Translations under genes and position numbers: made by a program
UHGV virus genome: UHGV-0247634
Source of the DNA: a virus
Length of the DNA stretch: 14,261 bases
Strand: one strand, 5' to 3'
In this document: positions 5-10,409 of the stretch, piece after piece
Position numbering within the stretch: the first letter of the stretch is position 1
Layout of the letters: every line of letters starts with the position of its first letter
Notes under the pieces: generated by a model
Seen by the model: the letters and a program-made list of their open reading frames with translations, nothing else
Databases searched by the model: none
What the model was told of the DNA's origin: nothing

Positions 5-280
5 ATGTTAAGTAACCTTCCCGGATTGCTGAATGTGGCGTTATGCACGGTTATCGTGCTGACGCTCTTTTTTTATCGTCGTCGTGACTCCAGACACAAA
101 CCGCTGATGTCATGGCTGGCCTGGCTGCTGATGCTGCTGTATGCCTTTGCGCCCCTCAGCTATCTGTGTGGTCGCCCGTTAGCAACGGGCTGGCTGGAAG
201 TGTTTTTTAACCTGCTGTTCTGCGTGCTGGTGATACGCGCACGCGGGAACGTCACAAAAATCTTTCCATTGTTGAGGTGA
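5..280 (+). CDS. putative holin (three predicted TM segments); N-terminus may extend beyond window start
   Basis: 91-aa ORF with three hydrophobic stretches (LPGLLNVALCTVIVLTLFFY, LMSWLAWLLMLLYAFAPL, WLEVFFNLLFCVLVI) separated by short basic loops. Stop TGA 278-280 lies in the SD/start region of the downstream peptidase gene, the usual holin-endolysin arrangement. Only 4 nt upstream are visible, so the start cannot be verified. Confidence 0.55.
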   Translation: MLSNLPGLLNVALCTVIVLTLFFYRRRDSRHKPLMSWLAWLLMLLYAFAPLSYLCGRPLATGWLEVFFNLLFCVLVIRARGNVTKIFPLLR

Positions 281-285
281 ATATG

Positions 286-663
286 ATGCCGGGTAAATTC
301 AGATTCAGCCGTCGCAGTGAAAAAAATCTGGAGGGCGTCAAACCACAGCTGGTTGCTGTCGTTCGCCGTGCGCTGGAGCTGACGGAGGTTGATTTTGGTA
401 TCACGGAAGGTCTGCGCAGTAAGTATCGCCAGAAACAGCTGGTAGCGGCAGGGAAAAGCCAGACCATGAACAGCCGCCACCTTACAGGTGATGCGGTGGA
501 TGTTGTGGCCTACATTGGCAGCCAGGTGTCATGGGACTGGCCTCTGTACGAGAAAATCGCGCAGGCATTTAAGCAGGCTGCCGCAGAGCTGGGAACTGCC
601 ATCGAATGGGGCGGGGACTGGAAAACACTGAAAGACGGGCCTCACTTTCAGTTGAAACGCTGA
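286..663 (+). CDS. endolysin, L-alanyl-D-glutamate peptidase (peptidase M15 / VanY-like, T5-endolysin type)
   Basis: Motifs SRHLTGDAVD and GPHFQL match the Zn-binding H-x-x-G-x-A-x-D and C-terminal His motifs of M15 endolysins as I recall them. Start ambiguous: GTG 277, ATG 283 or ATG 286; SD GAGGT at 274-278 favours ATG 286. Positioned between a putative holin and a lipoprotein. Confidence 0.85.
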   Translation: MPGKFRFSRRSEKNLEGVKPQLVAVVRRALELTEVDFGITEGLRSKYRQKQLVAAGKSQTMNSRHLTGDAVDVVAYIGSQVSWDWPLYEKIAQAFKQAAAELGTAIEWGGDWKTLKDGPHFQLKR

Positions 664-677
664 TAACCAGGTGTGTT

Positions 678-860
678 ATGAGCAGAAAACACTGGACACA
701 CAGAATGCCGCGAACGGCGGCGAAATGGGCACTGGTAGCGATACTGGTGCCTTTTTTCCTGGTGGGATGCGTCAGCCTGGATAAGGCGCGCCAGCTTTTC
801 GATACAGCTTCTCAGGTCTGTGAAATTGTCGACGGTGTCCGGCAGTGTATGCAGAACTGA
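678..860 (+). CDS. small secreted lipoprotein, possible o-spanin-like lysis accessory protein
   Basis: 60-aa ORF with a basic n-region (MSRKHWTHRMPRTAAK), hydrophobic h-region (WALVAILVPFFLVG) and lipobox L-V-G-C. Predicted mature peptide is about 30 aa with three Cys. Lies immediately downstream of the endolysin. The ORF-track version from 606 overlaps the endolysin and has no N-terminal signal, so ATG 678 is preferred. Confidence 0.55.
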   Translation: MSRKHWTHRMPRTAAKWALVAILVPFFLVGCVSLDKARQLFDTASQVCEIVDGVRQCMQN

Positions 861-892: not shown

Positions 893-1081
893 ATGGAATC
901 GCCAATTATGAAATATTTCAATTATGAGCATCTTCCGACTTCGTTAAAGGAAGTGAGTAAGCCAATTGGTGATCTGGCAAGAGTAATGGATGAATCTTTG
1001 CCAGACGGTCCGGAAAAGTCGGCTGGGTTACGTAAATTGCTTGAAGCAAAAGATGCTCTGGTGCGAGCGAAACTGGGTTAA
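893..1081 (+). CDS. hypothetical small soluble protein (moron candidate)
   Basis: 62-aa ORF (MESPIMKYFNYEHLP...) with SD AGGAG at 883-887 and ATG 893. About 43% GC by hand count, visibly lower than flanking late genes. No TM segment; C-terminal amphipathic helix-like stretch (LRKLLEAKDALVRAKLG). Followed by a strong hairpin. No family recognised. Confidence 0.45.
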   Translation: MESPIMKYFNYEHLPTSLKEVSKPIGDLARVMDESLPDGPEKSAGLRKLLEAKDALVRAKLG

Positions 1082-1090
1082 GGCATTACA

Positions 1091-1114
1091 GCAGCCCTTC
1101 AGCCGAGGGGCTGC
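1091..1114. terminator. stem-loop between convergent genes, candidate bidirectional terminator
   Basis: gcagcccttc (1091-1100) pairs with gaggggctgc (1105-1114), a 10-bp stem with one G-U pair and loop agcc. It sits between the stop of the + strand ORF (1081) and the stop of the - strand ORF (1124). No clean U-tract on either side, so termination efficiency is uncertain. Confidence 0.4.
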
Positions 1115-1123
1115 AATAATGCT

Positions 1124-1330
1124 TTAGTTGTCTTTCATAAATCCTTTAATGACCCATCCCACAAGCCTGGTGATGCTGTACACAAACAAGGCAATTATCA
1201 GAGATACAAGGATATCAAACAGTGAGAATCCTTGCGTATCCGTTGTTGAAAATAAAAGACTAAAGATGAACACCAGAATGGCCAACAGAATACCTACCCG
1301 GTGAAAGCCTTTAGAAATCATGTTTTTCAT
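1124..1330 (-). CDS. hypothetical small membrane protein, two predicted TM helices (antisense moron)
   Basis: 68-aa ORF (MKNMISKGFHRVGILLAILVFIFSLLF...DILVSLIIALFVYSITRLVGWVI...) with two hydrophobic helices and a basic C-terminus. SD GGAGGA is 4 nt upstream of the ATG on the - strand. About 38% GC by hand count. It is the only convincing gene on the - strand, in the position where lambda carries the antisense bor moron. Confidence 0.55.
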   Translation of the reverse strand: MKNMISKGFHRVGILLAILVFIFSLLFSTTDTQGFSLFDILVSLIIALFVYSITRLVGWVIKGFMKDN

Positions 1331-1391
1331 TTGTCCTCCATATTTGTTTTTTTAAAGGGTGGGCATTTTAACATCAGAAGGATGAAGTTCT

Positions 1392-1742
1392 ATGCCATCA
1401 CGAATACCCCGCGCCTGCCGTAAGCGTGGATGCGCAGGTACAACCACAGACAGTTCTGGTTACTGCGATAAACATCGTGGTGAAGGATGGGCACAGCACC
1501 AGCGCGGACTGAGCCGCCACCAGCGTGGCTATGGCTCAAAATGGACGGTGATTCGTGCCCGTATTCTGAAGCGCGATAAAGGTCTGTGTCAGTTGTGTCT
1601 GCGTGTCGGTGTGGTGAGCGAGGCGAAAACCGTCGACCACATCATCCCGAAAGCGCATGGCGGGACAGACGCAGACAGCAACCTGCAGAGTCTGTGCTGG
1701 CCCTGCCACAAAGTGAAAACAGCGCGCGAACGAATCAGGTGA
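1392..1742 (+). CDS. HNH endonuclease, terminase-associated type
   Basis: 116-aa ORF with Cys-rich zinc-finger-like pairs (CRKRGC...CDKH, CQLCL, CWPCH) and HNH core DHIIPKAHGG...N...H. Located directly upstream of the putative cos region and terminase genes, as in HK97-like packaging modules. Confidence 0.9.
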   Translation: MPSRIPRACRKRGCAGTTTDSSGYCDKHRGEGWAQHQRGLSRHQRGYGSKWTVIRARILKRDKGLCQLCLRVGVVSEAKTVDHIIPKAHGGTDADSNLQSLCWPCHKVKTARERIR

Positions 1743-1889
1743 TAATTATTCTCACTTGTGGGGAGGGGCGGGTCAAATCCCTGCAGCCCTGGCTGTCCGG
1801 GACCGCCCGCCAACCCTTCTTCGCATCGCCGCAGGTTCGAAAACTTTTTTTTGGGAATGCGATCAAACGATTGATAGGTAAAACCGATT
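1743..1889. other. putative cos / terminase recognition region
   Basis: 147-bp non-coding gap between the HNH gene and the small terminase gene. G/C-rich core with imperfect inverted repeat GGGCGGGTC (1765-1773) and GACCGCCCGC (1801-1810), a T8 run (1846-1853), and an IHF-core-like ATCAAacgaTTG (1862-1873). Exact cohesive-end position cannot be determined from sequence alone. Confidence 0.4.
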
Positions 1890-2372
1890 ATGTCAGGACC
1901 CCCGAAAACCCCGCCACGCCTGCATTTGATACGAGGCAACCCCTCAAAGCGCCCCGTTAAAGACCCAAAAAAAACCGCTAAAAAGGATGAAAAAGGTCTC
2001 CCTAAAATTCCGCAGCATTTAGGGGTGCAGGGGAAGTACTGGTTCAGGCGAATGGCGGAAGAACTGAATGCGGAAGGGATCATTTCTCAGCTTGATGCGC
2101 GTGCACTCGAGTTACTGGTGGAAGCCTACACCGAATACCGGCATCACTGCGAAACACTTGATGCTGAGGGTTATACCTACCGCACGGAAACGCAGAACGG
2201 TGATGTGCTGATTAAGGCACACCCGGCTGCTGCGATGAAAGCGGATGCCTGGAAGCGGATCCGGGCGATGCTTGCAGAGTTTGGTATGTCACCGGCAAGC
2301 CGGGCGAAAGTAAATACCGCCGGACCGGATGATGTTGATCCGCTGGCGGAACTTTTAAAAGCGAGAGACTGA
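1890..2372 (+). CDS. terminase small subunit, P27 family
   Basis: 160-aa ORF. N-terminus MSGPPKTPPRLHLIRGNPSKRPVKDPKK matches the characteristic GRPPKP...L.GNPGKRP signature of P27-family small terminases as I recall it. Stop overlaps the large terminase start (ATGA at 2370-2374). Confidence 0.85.
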   Translation: MSGPPKTPPRLHLIRGNPSKRPVKDPKKTAKKDEKGLPKIPQHLGVQGKYWFRRMAEELNAEGIISQLDARALELLVEAYTEYRHHCETLDAEGYTYRTETQNGDVLIKAHPAAAMKADAWKRIRAMLAEFGMSPASRAKVNTAGPDDVDPLAELLKARD

Positions 2373-4129
2373 TGGCAAAAGTGGCTGACGGGATCCGCTA
2401 CGCCGAACGTGTTGTTGCAGGAGAAATTGTCGCTGGCGAATTTGTCCGTCTGGCCTGCCAGCGTTTTCTTGATGATCTGAAGTACGGCGAAGAGCGGGGG
2501 ATTTATTTCAGTGAACCCCGTGCGCAGCACATCCTGAATTTCTACAAATTTGTGCCCCATGTAAAAGGGGCGCTGGCAGGCCAGCCCATTGAACTGATGG
2601 ACTGGCATGTATTTATCCTCATTAATATTTTTGGTTTTGTCATTCCGCTGGTCAATGAAGAGACCGGGGAAGTTGTCATGCGCAGCGATGGCAGCGGACG
2701 TCCGGTGATGGTGCGCCGGTTCCGGACGGCGTACAACGAAGTCGCCCGTAAAAACGCAAAATCAACCCTGTCATCGGGTATCGGCCTGTATATGACGGGG
2801 GCAGATGGTGAAGGCGGGGCTGAGGTGTATTCAGCTGCAACCACGCGTGACCAGGCCAGAATTGTGTTTGAAGACGCCAAAAATATGGTCAGAAAAGCCC
2901 GGTCGACACTCGGGCGATTGTTTGATTTCAACAAGCTGGCGATTTACCAGGAGCAGAGCGCATCAAAATTTGAACCGCTTTCCTCGGATGCAAACAACCT
3001 GGACGGTCTGAACATCCACTGCGCCATTATTGATGAGCTGCATGCACATAAAACCCGTGATGTGTGGGATGTTCTGGAAACGGCAACCGGTGCCCGTCTG
3101 CAGTCCCTGTTATTTGGTATCACCACGGCAGGCTTTAACAAGGAAGGGATCTGTTACGAGCAGCGTGATTACGCCATTAAGGTATTGCGTGGCTATAACA
3201 GCAACGTGGAGGGCGCGGTAAAAGACGACTCCTACTTTGCGATCATTTACACGCTCGATGAGGGAGATGATCCGTTTGATGAAACGGTCTGGCAGAAAGC
3301 GAATCCCGGCCTGGGCATCTGTAAACGCTGGGATGATCTGCGTCGTCTGGCGAAAAAAGCGAAGGAGCAGGTTTCAGCGCGGGTGAATTTTTTCACGAAA
3401 CACATGAATGTGTGGGTCACTGCCGAATCTGCCTGGATGGACATGATTAAGTGGGAGAAGTGCGAATATATTGCTCCACAGCATGAGCTGAAAACCTATC
3501 CCATGTGGGTCGGCGTCGACCTTGCTCATAAGATTGATATCTGTGCGGCGGCAAAACTCTGGCGAACCGATAACGGACATGTTCATGCTGATTTTAAATT
3601 CTGGCTCCCGGAAGGACGGCTGGAGCGGTGCTCGCGGCAGCAGGCAGAACTTTACCGGAAATGGGCCGAGATGGATAAGCTCATCCTGACGGATGGTGAT
3701 GTTATCGATCATGCTCAGATAAAAAGTGACTTACTGGAATGGATTGGTGGTGAAAACCTGAGGGAGCTGGGATTTGATCCGTGGAGCGCGATGCAGTTCA
3801 GTCTGGCGCTGGCTGAAGAAGGGATACCGCTGGTGGAGGTTCCGCAGACGGTCCGCAATCTGTCAGAGGCCATGAAGGAAACGGAATCACTGGTCTATGC
3901 CGGGCGTTTCCATCACAGCAATCACCCGGTCATGAACTGGATGATGTCTAACGTTACGGTAAAACCGGACAAAAACGACAATATCTTCCCGAACAAATCC
4001 ACGCCGGAAGCCAAAATCGACGGTCCTGTTGCGATGTTTACAGCAATGAGCCGGATGCTGGTCAATGGCGGTGAACCGGAGCCGGATCTGTCTGAGCATC
4101 TGGTCAGCGTTGGTATCCGCTCGCTTTAA
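2372..4129 (+). CDS. terminase large subunit (ATPase plus nuclease)
   Basis: 585-aa ORF immediately after the small terminase. Walker B-like hhhhDE ([10 protein letters not shown]) in the N-terminal half and an acidic RNase H-like nuclease motif ([12 protein letters not shown]) in the C-terminal half. Size and position typical of TerL. Confidence 0.93.
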
Positions 4130-5564: not shown

Positions 5565-6192
5565 TATACCGCTGAACCTGAAATCCGTCAGTGATTCCGG
5601 GGAATTTGAAGGTTACGGTTCTGTTTTTGGTGTTAAGGACAGCCACGATGATGTGGTGGTCCCCGGAGCCTTTACCACAACACTCCAGAAATGGAGCGAA
5701 AAAAAGGCGCTGCCTGCGTTGCTCTGGCAGCACCGCATGGATGAGCCCATCGGTGTGTACACCGAAATGAAAGAAGACGATGTCGGGCTTTATGTCAGGG
5801 GGCGATTACTCGTTGATGATGATCCCCTGGCAAAACGTGCACATGCCCATATGAAGGCCGGTTCTTTAACCGGCCTTTCTATTGGCTACATCCTGAAAGA
5901 CTGGGAGTACGACCGTGAAAAAGGGGTATTCCTGCTGAAAGAGATCGACCTGTGGGAGGTCAGTCTGGTGACGTTTCCTTCCAATGATGAGGCACGCATC
6001 AGCGATGTGAAAAATGCGCTGGCGCGTGGGGAGATCCCTGATCAGAAAATTATTGAGCGAGTCCTGCGCGATGTTGGACTCTCGCGAACCCAGGCCAAAG
6101 CATTCATGGCCGGGGGATATGGCGCTTTATCCCTGCGTGATGCTGAGGATGTGGATGCCGCACTGAATGCACTGAAAAATCTTAAATTTTAA
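5542..6192 (+). CDS. prohead maturation protease, HK97 family (peptidase S78/U35)
   Basis: N-terminal region MQTKQRLDIPLNLKSVSDSGEFEGYGSVFGVKDSHDDVVVPGAF is characteristic of HK97 gp4-type prohead proteases. Start chosen at ATG 5542 with SD AGGAG at 5531-5535; the ORF-track start at 5512 is an in-frame upstream extension. Overlaps the portal 3' end by 23 nt. Confidence 0.88.
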   Translation: MQTKQRLDIPLNLKSVSDSGEFEGYGSVFGVKDSHDDVVVPGAFTTTLQKWSEKKALPALLWQHRMDEPIGVYTEMKEDDVGLYVRGRLLVDDDPLAKRAHAHMKAGSLTGLSIGYILKDWEYDREKGVFLLKEIDLWEVSLVTFPSNDEARISDVKNALARGEIPDQKIIERVLRDVGLSRTQAKAFMAGGYGALSLRDAEDVDAALNALKNLKF

Positions 6193-6205: not shown

Positions 6206-7432
6206 ATGGCTGTTGATATTAAAGACGTGGAACAGGTCGCGCAGGATTTGCAGCAGAAGTTTGACGATTTTAAGGAAAAAAACGACAAACGCATTGACGC
6301 GATCGAGCAGGAAAAGGGAAAACTTGCCGGAGAAGTGGAAAACCTCAACGAAAAACTGACTGAACTGGAGAACCTGAAAAGCGACCTGGAAAAAGAGCTG
6401 GCAGACATCAAGCGTCCGGCAGGCGGCACGCAAAATAAAGTTGCCAGTGAACACAAAGAAGCGTTTATCGGATTTATGCGCAAGGGGCGTGAAGACGGTC
6501 TGCGTGAGCTTGAGCGTAAGGCGCTGCAGGTGGGCAATGATGAAGATGGTGGTTATGCCATTCCGGAAGAACTGGATCGCACTATTCTGACGCTGCTGAA
6601 AGATGAGGTAGTGATGCGCCAGGAAGCCTCTGTGATCACCCTCGGTGGCTCGGATTATAAAAAACTGGTGAATCTGGGCGGCACAACGTCCGGATGGGTG
6701 GGGGAAACGGATGCACGTCCGGAAACCGCCACCTCAAAACTGGGGCTGATTGAACCCTTTATGGGGGAAATCTACGGCAACCCGCAGGCCACCCAGAAAA
6801 TGCTCGATGACGCTTTCTTCAATGTGGAAGACTGGATCAACAGTGAGCTGGCGCTGGAATTTGCCGAACAGGAAGAAATTGCCTTTACCAGTGGCGACGG
6901 CAGCAAAAAACCAAAAGGTTTTCTGGCTTATGAGTCCACCGATGAAGATGACAAGACCCGTGCGTTTGGCAAACTTCAGCACATTGCTTCCGGTGCGGCT
7001 TCCGGCGTGACTGCCGATGCGATCATTAAACTGATTTACACCCTGCGCAAGGCGCATCGCAGCGGCGCGAAGTTCATGATGAACAACAGCAGCCTGTTTG
7101 CCATTCGTCTGCTGAAGGATAACGACGGAAATTATCTGTGGCGTCCGGGTATTGAGCTGGGTCAGCCTTCTTCTCTGGCAGGGTATGGCATCGTTGAGAA
7201 TGAACAGATGCCGGATATTGCTGCCGATGCAAAAGCCATTGCGTTTGGTAACTTCAAACGTGGCTATACCATCGTTGATCGCATCGGTACCCGTATCCTG
7301 CGCGATCCGTACACCAATAAACCGTTTGTGGGTTTTTATACCACCAAGCGAACCGGCGGTATGCTGGTGGATTCTCAGGCGATTAAGCTGATGAAAATTG
7401 GGGCTGCAACCCGCCAGAAAGCCGCTGCGTAA
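6206..7432 (+). CDS. major capsid protein, HK97 fold, with N-terminal coiled-coil scaffolding (delta) domain
   Basis: 408-aa ORF after the protease. First ~70 residues are charged and heptad-like (DLQQKFDDFKEKNDKRIDAIEQEKGKLAGEVENLNEKLTELENLKSDLEKELADIK), typical of the delta domain in HK97-type capsid proteins; no separate scaffold gene is present. SD AGGAG at 6195-6199. Confidence 0.9.
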   Translation: MAVDIKDVEQVAQDLQQKFDDFKEKNDKRIDAIEQEKGKLAGEVENLNEKLTELENLKSDLEKELADIKRPAGGTQNKVASEHKEAFIGFMRKGREDGLRELERKALQVGNDEDGGYAIPEELDRTILTLLKDEVVMRQEASVITLGGSDYKKLVNLGGTTSGWVGETDARPETATSKLGLIEPFMGEIYGNPQATQKMLDDAFFNVEDWINSELALEFAEQEEIAFTSGDGSKKPKGFLAYESTDEDDKTRAFGKLQHIASGAASGVTADAIIKLIYTLRKAHRSGAKFMMNNSSLFAIRLLKDNDGNYLWRPGIELGQPSSLAGYGIVENEQMPDIAADAKAIAFGNFKRGYTIVDRIGTRILRDPYTNKPFVGFYTTKRTGGMLVDSQAIKLMKIGAATRQKAAA

Positions 7433-8986: not shown

Positions 8987-9691
8987 ATGTCCTCTAATTT
9001 TGAGCGTTCGCAACTGACGAAAATTATGATTTCGTCTGCACCGGTAACAGCAGAAACCCTGGATTCTGCCAGCTATCTTGGCCTGAGCTGTACAATCAAA
9101 GAGGTGCAGTTTACCGCAGGACAAAAGCAGGATATTGATGTCACCACGCTGTGTTCTGTTGAGCAGGAAAATATTAACGGTCTTGGTGCCGCGTCAGAGA
9201 TTTCCATGTCAGGCAACTTTTACCTTAATGCTGCCCAGAACGCGTTGCGCAGTGCCTATGACAATGACACCACGTATGGCTTTAAAGTTATTTTTCCGTC
9301 AGGAAACGGATTTACCTTTATGGCAGAGGTGCGTCAGCATACCTGGTCTGCAGGAACCAATGGTGTTGTGGCTGCAACGTTTTCCCTGCGCCTGAAAGGT
9401 AAACCTGTGCTGACGACAGAGCCGCTGAAAGTGAAGGTAGATTTAAACAGCACGCTGCAGGTTTCTGCCGGAGCGAAACTCGAAATGGTGGTTGAGGCTG
9501 CCGGTGGTGTGCCGCCTTATTCTTATGTCTGGAAGAAAGGTAGTTCTCCTGTTTCCGGACAGACGGCGGCAACGTTCAGTAAGGCATCAGCAGCATCCGG
9601 TGATGCCGGTGCGTATACCTGCGAGATTTCTGATTCAGCAAGCCCGGTTAACAAAGTGACCACCACTTCCTGCACTGTAACCGTCAGTTAA
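8987..9691 (+). CDS. major tail (tube) protein with C-terminal Ig-like domain
   Basis: 234-aa ORF with SD AGGAG 8976-8980. The N-terminal ~140 aa has a tail-tube-like region (GFKVIFPSGNGFTFMAEV, reminiscent of lambda gpV KIRFPNGT). The C-terminal ~90 aa resembles an Ig-like domain (VKVDLNSTLQVSAG...GGVPPYSYVWKKG...AGAYTCEISDSA...CTVTVS). Immediately precedes the G/GT chaperone genes. Confidence 0.8.
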   Translation: MSSNFERSQLTKIMISSAPVTAETLDSASYLGLSCTIKEVQFTAGQKQDIDVTTLCSVEQENINGLGAASEISMSGNFYLNAAQNALRSAYDNDTTYGFKVIFPSGNGFTFMAEVRQHTWSAGTNGVVAATFSLRLKGKPVLTTEPLKVKVDLNSTLQVSAGAKLEMVVEAAGGVPPYSYVWKKGSSPVSGQTAATFSKASAASGDAGAYTCEISDSASPVNKVTTTSCTVTVS

Positions 9692-10077: not shown

Positions 10078-10379
10078 CGCTTCCGGGGATGCGTTTTCTG
10101 ATGATGCTGGCGCTCAGGATGGGGCGCACATTGTCAGAGTTACGCCGGGAAATGTCCGCATCAGAAATCATGATGTGGGCAGAATTTGACAGGTTCAGCC
10201 CGCTGGGGGACGAACGGGCTGATATCCGGGCTGCCCAGATTGTTTCAGCTGTTTACGGTGCGCAGGGGGTTAAAGTACCACTGAATGATGTGCTTCTTCA
10301 GTGGGAGCAGGAGCAGACAGAAGGCGCCTCAGATCCATTTGCCGGGCTGGAAAACGCGCTTTTAACCGTGTCTCAGTGA
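9691..10379 (+). CDS. tail assembly chaperone frameshift fusion (gpGT-like), produced by -1 ribosomal frameshift at 10068-10074
   Basis: The zero-frame codons AAA AAG (10069-10074), preceded by A at 10068, form the slippery heptamer A_AAA_AAG just before the G stop (TAG 10075-10077). The -1 frame is open from 10074 through the downstream ORF to its stop at 10379. The distal part (MRFLMMLALRMGRTLSELRREMSASEIMMWAEFDRFSPLGDERADIRAAQIVSAV) resembles the lambda gpT family. Confidence 0.7.
10068..10074 (+). promoter_or_regulatory. programmed -1 ribosomal frameshift slippery heptamer A_AAA_AAG
   Basis: Same heptamer type as the E. coli dnaX frameshift site, located at the 3' end of the gpG-like ORF with the downstream ORF in the -1 frame. 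Confidence 0.65.
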
Positions 10380-10387
10380 GTCAACAT

Positions 10388-10409
10388 AACCGCTTCGGCG
10401 GTTTTTTTT
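10388..10409 (+). terminator. rho-independent terminator-like hairpin (UUCG tetraloop) plus U-tract upstream of the tape measure gene
   Basis: aaccgc (10388-10393) pairs with gcggtt (10398-10403), loop ttcg, followed by a T-run to 10409. Lies 9 nt after the GT stop and 10 nt before the tape measure ATG. Confidence 0.5.

Follow-up and report, generated by a model that had tools for sequence, protein, structure and literature searches.

The stretch of DNA considered here (hereafter the window, meaning its whole length of 14,261 nucleotides) comes from the virus genome UHGV-0247634, and its late region resembles that of phage phiP27. A lysis cassette and a cargo open reading frame (ORF) on the + strand are followed by a GC-rich stem-loop, a small ORF on the - strand, and the first packaging genes (Table 1). 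The initial annotation of this locus had described a 10-base-pair (bp) hairpin lying between the convergent stop codons, and had proposed that the two flanking genes might use it jointly to terminate or stabilize their transcripts. This hairpin forms the central part of an element of 38 nucleotides (nt) with sharp boundaries, CATTACA-[10-bp stem, variable loop]-RATAATG, which recurs in many other phages. It is best described as a module-junction stem-loop of temperate Enterobacterales phages, one that is without an Rfam family and for which a function can be inferred.

The hairpin itself is real, as both the sequence and its fold confirm. Positions 1091-1114 read GCAGCCCTTC-AGCC-GAGGGGCTGC, and as + strand RNA the two arms form 10 pairs, including one U·G pair (1098·1107), around a 4-nt loop. 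A folding-energy calculation gives this structure a free energy (dG) of -18.6 kcal/mol and a z-score of -4.6, with none of 200 shuffled sequences equally stable. On the - strand, where 1098·1107 becomes a C·A mismatch, the corresponding values are -14.7 kcal/mol and -2.6. The stop codons of the + strand ORF (1079-1081) and of the - strand ORF (1124-1126) each lie 9 nt from the stem, in agreement with the initial placement of the hairpin between stops at 1081 and 1124. The caution that it lacks a clean U-tract and is not a textbook intrinsic terminator was also sound: neither strand has a U-tract after the stem (the + strand tail reads AAUAAUGC), no A- or U-tracts flank the hairpin on either strand, and a terminator scan does not call the site.

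Table 1. Features of the lysis-packaging junction in the window (ORF, open reading frame; aa, amino acids; TM, transmembrane)
Feature	Position	Strand	Basis or remark
Holin gene	5-280	+	
M15 endolysin gene	277-663	+	
Last lysis-cassette ORF, hypothetical protein	678-860	+	PHROG 7528 (function unknown)
Cargo ORF, 63 aa	890-1081	+	PHROG 1761/5120 (function unknown); ends 2 nt before element
Extended hairpin, specific to the window	1078-1127	+	Outer helix of 11 pairs over both stop codons, then TTGTCTTT
Junction element, CATTACA - 10-bp stem - loop - 10-bp stem - AATAATG (family consensus GATAATG)	1084-1121	+	Covariance model, homology breaks, conservation
Outer helix, 5' half CATTA	1084-1088	+	Fold; partner TAATG at 1117-1121
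Inner hairpin	5' arm 1091-1100, loop 1101-1104 (AGCC), 3' arm 1105-1114	+	Sequence, fold
Small ORF with two TM helices, 68 aa	1124-1330	-	Between element and HNH gene
Candidate extended -10 promoter TGTTAAAAT for the - strand ORF	1365-1373	-	Read from sequence
HNH endonuclease, first packaging gene	1392-1742	+	Pfam HNH 1.2e-15
P27-type small terminase (TerS)	1890-2372	+	Terminase_4 4.5e-26; large terminase next

The structure extends beyond the stem that was first described. The conserved flanks pair with each other as an outer helix (CATTA with TAATG), which is separated from the inner stem by an internal loop in which 1089-1090 (CA) lie opposite 1115-1116 (AA). In the window, this helix continues outward so that 1078-1088 pair with 1117-1127, and the extended hairpin reaches -31.3 kcal/mol (z -6.2) on the + strand and -25.3 kcal/mol on the - strand. 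The extension to 1078 and 1127 is specific to the present pair of neighboring genes, and it is not conserved by the family. The family form is instead (A)GG-CATTACA-[10-bp stem]-[loop]-[10-bp stem]-GATAATG, with a length of about 38-42 nt.

A covariance model of the family (R1) scores 54.7 bits (E 1.7e-12) on the + strand of the window, versus 27.6 bits on the - strand. The model finds one copy in the window and one in phiP27, and it finds no copy in lambda at E <= 10. Among 234 distinct contexts, the flanks CAUUACA and GAUAAUG are 89-97% conserved, conservation just past the 3' end is at most 54%, and the 5' side fades over about 3 nt. The loop has 3 nt in 200 of these contexts and 2-7 nt in the others, and its sequence is free. 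The sequences that surround the element are unrelated from locus to locus, as seen in 90 to 234 distinct contexts.

The element is widespread within one bacterial order. A 61-nt query locates it at 573 places in 376 of 5426 complete E. coli genomes, with as many as seven per genome and 34 on plasmids, and the number of genomes is a lower bound since the query represents a single sequence type. Pattern scans of IMG/VR recover at least 120 contigs for each pattern. When one genome per species is scanned, 43 genuine copies are found in 24 Enterobacterales genera, among them Pectobacterium, Yersinia, Erwinia, Rahnella, Serratia, Pantoea, Edwardsiella, and Salmonella, and the matches elsewhere are four chance ones that do not fold. 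Named carriers include phiP27, cdtI, phi458, Fels-1, phi80, mEp390, and ST64B, as well as phages of Klebsiella, Yersinia, and Edwardsiella. No annotation of the element is present in the phage records inspected, and the Rfam 15 covariance models give no match to positions 1-2400 of the window at E <= 1. A search of the literature for the string GCATTACAGCAG returns only unrelated papers, and a full-text search for a conserved lambdoid stem-loop returns nothing relevant. Similarly, a near-identity search of phage records with a 541-nt region yields no match, only short or distant ones.

Covariation indicates that the fold is maintained by selection. In an alignment of 44 distinct variants, 99.1% of the pair cells hold standard pairs, and three pairs have changed on both sides (C-G to G-C; C-G to A-U; and C-G to G-C or U-A). 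A covariation score as high as the observed one is obtained in 0 of 500 shuffles, and pairing drops to 35-56% when the partner columns are displaced by 1-3 positions. A second set of copies was gathered by sequence alone (nhmmer, which has no structure term), and its 92 distinct complete variants include changes on both sides at five pairs, one of which belongs to the outer helix. Within the inner stem, the family shows compensatory changes at pairs 2, 5, 7, and 10. The nearly invariant parts are GCAG/CUGC, UUC/GAG with its U·G pair, and the two flanks, whereas mid-stem pairs covary and the loop is unconstrained. Changes in the outer helix mostly respect its pairing: the variants TATTACA, CATTGCA, and GATGATG retain it through U·G or G·U pairs, CATTTCA together with GAAAATG is a compensatory change, and TGTAATG variants, present in at least four contexts, close the internal loop.

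The same variants reveal which strand folds. Pairs are formed in 98.4% of cells when the 92 variants are read on the + strand and in 87.0% when they are read on the - strand. Counting all pairs on the + strand, 165 cells are G·U and 8 are A·C, and the counts are 52 and 8 when the two habitual wobble pairs are left out. The + strand fold is the more stable one in every variant compared, including type B (-22.1 versus -17.2 kcal/mol on the - strand), type C (-20.6 versus -16.3 kcal/mol), and ST64B (-15.1 versus -8.7 kcal/mol), whose - strand hairpin is lost (z -0.35). To judge from the sequences, the folding strand is the + strand, which has the sense of the late genes, because the non-Watson-Crick pairs are overwhelmingly G·U there and become C·A mismatches on the - strand. 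The folded molecule would be either the + strand transcript or + strand single-stranded DNA (ssDNA).

The element also marks the places where related genomes part. In megablast comparisons with E. coli genomes, homology to the window breaks at the hairpin: in some genomes it begins at 1084 and covers only what lies to the right, and in others it stops at 1121. One relative (L004) matches positions 1-1121 at 99.3% and continues with an unrelated module encoding a DUF1441 protein and a large terminase subunit. Another (L002) matches 1084-3902 at 95.3% and lacks the + strand cargo ORF. In the interval from the lysis genes to the next block that is shared, a third relative (L009) has only about 1072-1131 in common with the window, and phiP27 has only about 1072-1122. 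The element is evidently a recombination joint, because the homology of relatives breaks exactly at 1084 or at 1121. By the same comparisons, the - strand ORF is a secondary insertion directly behind the element.

Several individual loci have further bearing on this history. In E. coli A31 (L005, 2725-2745), the element after the same + strand ORF has been cut down to GGCATTACAGC and the remainder has been replaced, so that the joint there falls inside the element. Double copies are present at only two of about 350 loci. In one of them (L026), copies at 9479-9514 and 10360-10395 enclose a cassette consisting of a 73-aa ORF, a canonical terminator, and a 165-aa ORF, and in the other (L270), copies at 5971-5992 and 7059-7080 enclose a cargo cassette. 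Such paired copies around cargo could be traces left when a cassette was acquired by recombination at the element. Three other genomes (H13-15; STEC306-308) carry a prophage truncated within the - strand ORF, beside hyaA, and are therefore uninformative.

The position of the element relative to genes is highly regular. A + strand ORF upstream of it has its stop codon within 40 nt in 119 of 142 distinct contexts and within 0-9 nt in 95 of them, most often at 1-4 nt, and a + strand gene with a Shine-Dalgarno (SD) sequence starts no more than 30 nt downstream in 49 of the 142. In every annotated locus, the orientation of the element is the direction of the late genes. The upstream gene is one of many unrelated cargo ORFs or else the last lysis gene. 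In two loci (L030 and L046), the stop codon of the homologue of the last lysis-cassette ORF is 6 nt ahead of the element with no cargo between, and in L002 this stop codon has been lost and the element follows directly, likewise without cargo. The cargo ORF of the window accompanies the element in L004 and is absent from L002, L003, and phiP27. Downstream genes encode HNH proteins, P27-type TerS, Terminase_2 small subunits (MAKPDW family), DUF1441 proteins, which precede the large terminase subunit in L004 and L007, or ParB/Srx followed by TerS. Occasionally there is further cargo downstream, such as sb55 in ST64B and a glycosyltransferase gene in mEp390.

Some copies have other companions. 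In Serratia sp. PL17 (L243, 207-244), a copy lies directly upstream of GemA and Mor homologues in a Mu-like prophage, and therefore the element is not confined to lambdoid lysis/packaging junctions. A second hairpin is found right after the element in type C copies (L018, L059, L106, L125, L130), in L009, and in phi80 (L131, 2040-2070). This second hairpin is a canonical terminator, GC-rich and with a T-run, in the type C copies and in L009, and it is without a clear T-run in phi80. Both L009 and phi80 have a - strand gene past the second hairpin, and the terminator of L009 appears to serve that gene because its T-run is on the - strand.

Any account of function must accommodate what is observed, namely the existence of the element, its boundaries, its distribution, its strand-specific structure, its position, and the mosaic break points. 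The account tentatively favored here, with confidence just short of even, is that the element is a late-operon RNA hairpin that attenuates transcription or protects 3' ends at the end of the lysis/cargo genes and that also offers a patch of homology for module exchange. Attenuation, 3' protection, and passage of polymerase modified by the Q antiterminator are the parts of this account that we infer. The element would fold in the rightward late-operon RNA and mark the end of the lysis/cargo genes ahead of the next module, which usually is packaging. For polymerase without Q, as in leaky or cargo transcription in a lysogen, it might act as a non-canonical attenuator composed of the GC-rich 10-bp stem and the CAUUA/UAAUG helix over an A/U-rich stretch. 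The hairpin might also block 3' exonucleases, and rightward transcripts would end there and be kept out of the HNH and terminase genes. During lytic growth, Q-modified polymerase would pass through the element.

The proposed second role concerns DNA. The mosaic genomes of temperate phages arise by homology-driven recombination through Rad52-like recombinases (PMC3945230). A nearly identical element could be the patch where such recombinases swap left (lysis/cargo) and right (packaging) modules, and the element is viewed as a homology patch because it is kept nearly identical in many phages whose neighboring genes are unrelated. In the window, the inserted - strand ORF might borrow the weaker antisense hairpin. 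That hairpin is the only structure available to this ORF here, and a secondary role in ending its transcript is possible.

A number of observations weigh against this account. The 10 nt after the outer helix have a median of 2-3 T residues, which is the background level, with six or more in only 10 of the 142 contexts, and there are 2-5 T residues in the 10 nt after the inner stem. The elements as a class are not canonical intrinsic terminators because they have no U-tract. The canonical terminator immediately behind the five type C copies listed above suggests that the element alone is not an efficient terminator. Furthermore, flanks that are 89-97% invariant are more conserved than a hairpin barrier requires, which hints at sequence-specific recognition or recombinational homogenization. 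Some copies are also found elsewhere, for example before GemA and Mor of the Mu-like prophage or ahead of further cargo. Because of the missing U-tract, the type C terminators, and the over-conserved flanks, sizeable weight is left on explanations that involve RNA processing or a binding factor.

Comparison with known systems helps to place the element. Its closest worked-out analogue is the promoter-early stem-loop (PeSL) of T4-type phages (Arbiol et al. 2010, PMC2839356; Comeau et al. 2014, PMC4122927). The stem-loops of T4 PeSLs, which include G-T pairs, sit between an upstream stop codon and a downstream SD sequence, terminate transcription in vivo, and mediate the shuffling of modules, and they have been proposed to keep cargo expression from spilling into virion genes (PMC2839356). 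The element resembles them as a short, conserved, intergenic stem-loop with G-T pairs that occupies a stop-to-SD position at joints, borders cargo, serves as a point of recombination shuffling, and has been given here a parallel role in keeping cargo transcription out of downstream virion genes. However, PeSLs carry a strong sigma-70 promoter and occur in many copies per genome within hyperplastic regions of virulent phages, whereas the element has no usable promoter, normally is present once, and belongs to temperate Enterobacterales phages. The element is also far more uniform in sequence than PeSLs are.

A second relevant precedent is the set of "boundary" or "linker" sequences of lambdoid phages, which lie at module junctions according to a model summarized in PMC3233612. 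The element fits that definition, by which rather than by sequence the two were compared, since it is a short conserved intergenic stretch where mosaic homology begins or ends (here at 1084 and 1121) between unrelated flanks. The original proposals of such sequences are said to be those of Susskind and Botstein and of Clark et al. in 2001. Unlike a plain boundary sequence, the element is also a strand-specific covarying hairpin, and for this reason it is considered to have a function of its own rather than to be a mere patch of homology.

Other known hairpins share some features with the element. As with intrinsic terminators, including bidirectional ones, there is a stable GC-rich stem-loop just past a stop codon, but the element has no U-rich tract right after the stem, has conserved flanks that are not U-rich, and sits inside a read-through operon. 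The combination of comparable hairpins on both strands, an A-tract upstream, and a U-tract downstream that typifies bidirectional terminators is likewise absent, as is any A-tract/U-tract symmetry. Repetitive extragenic palindromic (REP) sequences, and the bacterial interspersed mosaic elements (BIMEs) built from them, protect upstream mRNA from 3' exonucleases, and like the element they are imperfect palindromes of about 35-40 nt in 3' untranslated or intercistronic positions. REPs are chromosomal, number in the hundreds, occur in both orientations, and bear the GTAG/CTAC signature of RAYT transposases, whereas the element is phage-borne, single-copy, and fixed in orientation. At the annotated loci examined it lies among phage genes, and GTAG/CTAC is absent from its sequence.

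One of the better alternatives to the attenuating hairpin, though an improbable one, is that the element is a site of RNA processing or retroregulation. RNase III would cut the full helix after read-through, as it does at T7 R1.1 or lambda sib, or RNase E would cut between GC and AUUACA, and the lysis/cargo mRNA would thereby be parted from the packaging mRNA and given a different stability. The anatomy fits, because a lower stem is followed by a conserved 2x2 internal loop and then by the 10-bp upper stem, and as in lambda sib/tI and the T7 RNase III sites, the lower helix forms only after read-through, there is an internal loop, and the structure lies between blocks of phage genes. The conserved flanks suggest recognition, the element is located midway in a long operon that needs read-through, and GCAUU can be counted in favor of cleavage as it presumably suits an RNase E preference for RN followed by WUU, cut between the two. 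However, the lambda sib/tI and T7 RNase III helices, for which cleavage has been demonstrated, are about 20 bp or longer, and the element is shorter. Compared with about two turns of double-stranded RNA, often interrupted by an internal loop, the family has 15 pairs plus the 2x2 loop, and the window has 21 pairs plus the loop. With only some 17 bp-equivalents, the conserved helix is a short substrate for RNase III, and the TGTAATG variants that close the internal loop also speak against this explanation.

A bolder idea, which likewise has only a modest chance of being correct, is that the element is an undescribed regulatory RNA. It would be a sequence-specific switch that sets the ratio of lysis/cargo to packaging expression and silences terminase in lysogens, and would in addition be a universal "linker" for swapping modules. 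For example, it might be a sib-like site that is cut or bound only upon read-through by Q-modified polymerase, once the outer helix forms.

Rather unlikely, but consistent with the pattern of conservation, is that the base of the stem, the U·G pair, and the flanks are read by a specific RNA-binding factor, encoded by phage or host, or by RNA polymerase itself, and that a new RNA-protein pair governs late expression. The near-invariance of these parts, set beside a covarying mid-stem and a free loop, speaks for such a factor, as does conservation of the element over 24 genera. However, no candidate factor was found, the neighboring genes are all variable, and recombinational homogenization could account for the sequence conservation equally well.

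The proposal in the initial annotation of a bidirectional terminator or stabilizer for the convergent + and - strand ORFs, one that insulates the antisense gene, is now unlikely. The hairpin does stand at equal distances from both stop codons, its antisense strand still folds (-14.7 kcal/mol, or -25.3 kcal/mol when extended), and the - strand ORF family has no terminator of its own. However, a U-tract is present on neither strand, and selection acts on the + strand only, so that the possible role in ending or stabilizing the + strand transcript stands while joint use by the two genes does not. Most loci have the element without an adjacent - strand gene. The - strand ORF of the window is itself an insertion that separates the HNH gene from the element; phiP27 has no such ORF, and its HNH gene starts 20 nt past the element. 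Where - strand neighbors do occur, in L009 and phi80, they have a separate hairpin of their own beside the element.

It is very improbable that the element is a feature of DNA only, either a recombination linker or a + strand ssDNA hairpin acting in replication or recombination. Homology does break exactly at the edges of the element, and two loci have two copies flanking cargo cassettes, but compensatory changes and strand-biased wobbles would not be expected of a duplex homology patch, and the variable loop length rules out a fixed dimer operator. Folding as ssDNA is conceivable, but no ssDNA stage specific to the + strand is known for these phages.

Least probable of the alternatives is an extended -10 sigma-70 promoter (TGYGATAAT) for the packaging genes, which is rejected on its spacing and on the TGTAATG variants. 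Although copies of the element keep TGnGATAAT at their 3' edge and T4 PeSLs join a stem-loop to a promoter, there is no -35 sequence at a usable spacing of 16-18 bp (ATTACA is at least 23 bp away), a promoter scan makes no call at the element, a lysogen would be harmed by making terminase constitutively, and TGTAATG destroys A-11 yet improves pairing. The helix is favored over a -10 sequence as the cause of the conserved GATAAT because outer-helix variants mostly retain pairing. Other candidates were discarded as well: a mini-ORF starting from the terminal ATG or from ATT, since frames and stop codons are not conserved; a double-stranded DNA operator for a dimeric protein, which is ruled out by loops of 2-7 nt and by the compensatory and wobble changes; and the XerC arm of dif, type I-E and I-F repeats of clustered regularly interspaced short palindromic repeats (CRISPR), CsrA sites, integron attC sites, and REPs, none of which seems to match the element in sequence or copy-number pattern.

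If the favored account of an attenuating or protective hairpin that doubles as a homology patch is correct, the element would provide a widespread, testable case in which mosaic phage genomes have been assembled by homologous recombination at short conserved junctions. It would also exemplify a second debated idea, that junction sequences persist as functional regulatory RNAs. A single covarying motif of 38 nt is shared by well-studied phages such as phi80, phiP27/Stx2e, Fels-1, and ST64B, where it lies immediately upstream of HNH or terminase genes whose expression presumably is dangerous in a lysogen. The motif thus offers a practical handle on late-operon insulation and module exchange, as well as a useful marker, when prophages are annotated, of where the lysis/cargo genes give way to packaging genes.

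The genes on either side of the element in the window present some additional features. The initial label of "moron" for the + strand cargo ORF is unconfirmed because a scan found no promoter for it. At the nucleotide level, this ORF is about 68-76% identical to genes carried by Acinetobacter, Alteromonas, Vibrio, Rhodobacter, Erwinia, and Citrobacter phages, a spread of phage hosts that is unusually broad for a tiny gene. Within the preceding ORF, at 727-752 on the + strand, there is a terminator-like hairpin followed by a T-run (GGGCACTGGTAGCGATACTGGTGCC TTTTTT), which is kept in L002. The product of the - strand ORF matches no Pfam or PHROG family, and it has 85% amino-acid identity to its homologue in L003, with an in-frame indel, and it is a real and conserved protein with two TM helices. 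The sequence TGTTAAAAT is a candidate promoter for this ORF that overlaps the stretch immediately preceding the HNH start codon; it has no -35 sequence, and the promoter scan does not call it. Farther downstream, in the gap between the HNH and TerS genes (1743-1889), a G-rich region aligns with the annotated 10-nt cos of phiP27, and by carrying that annotation over through the alignment, cos of the window is placed near 1804-1813, about 700 nt downstream of the junction element.
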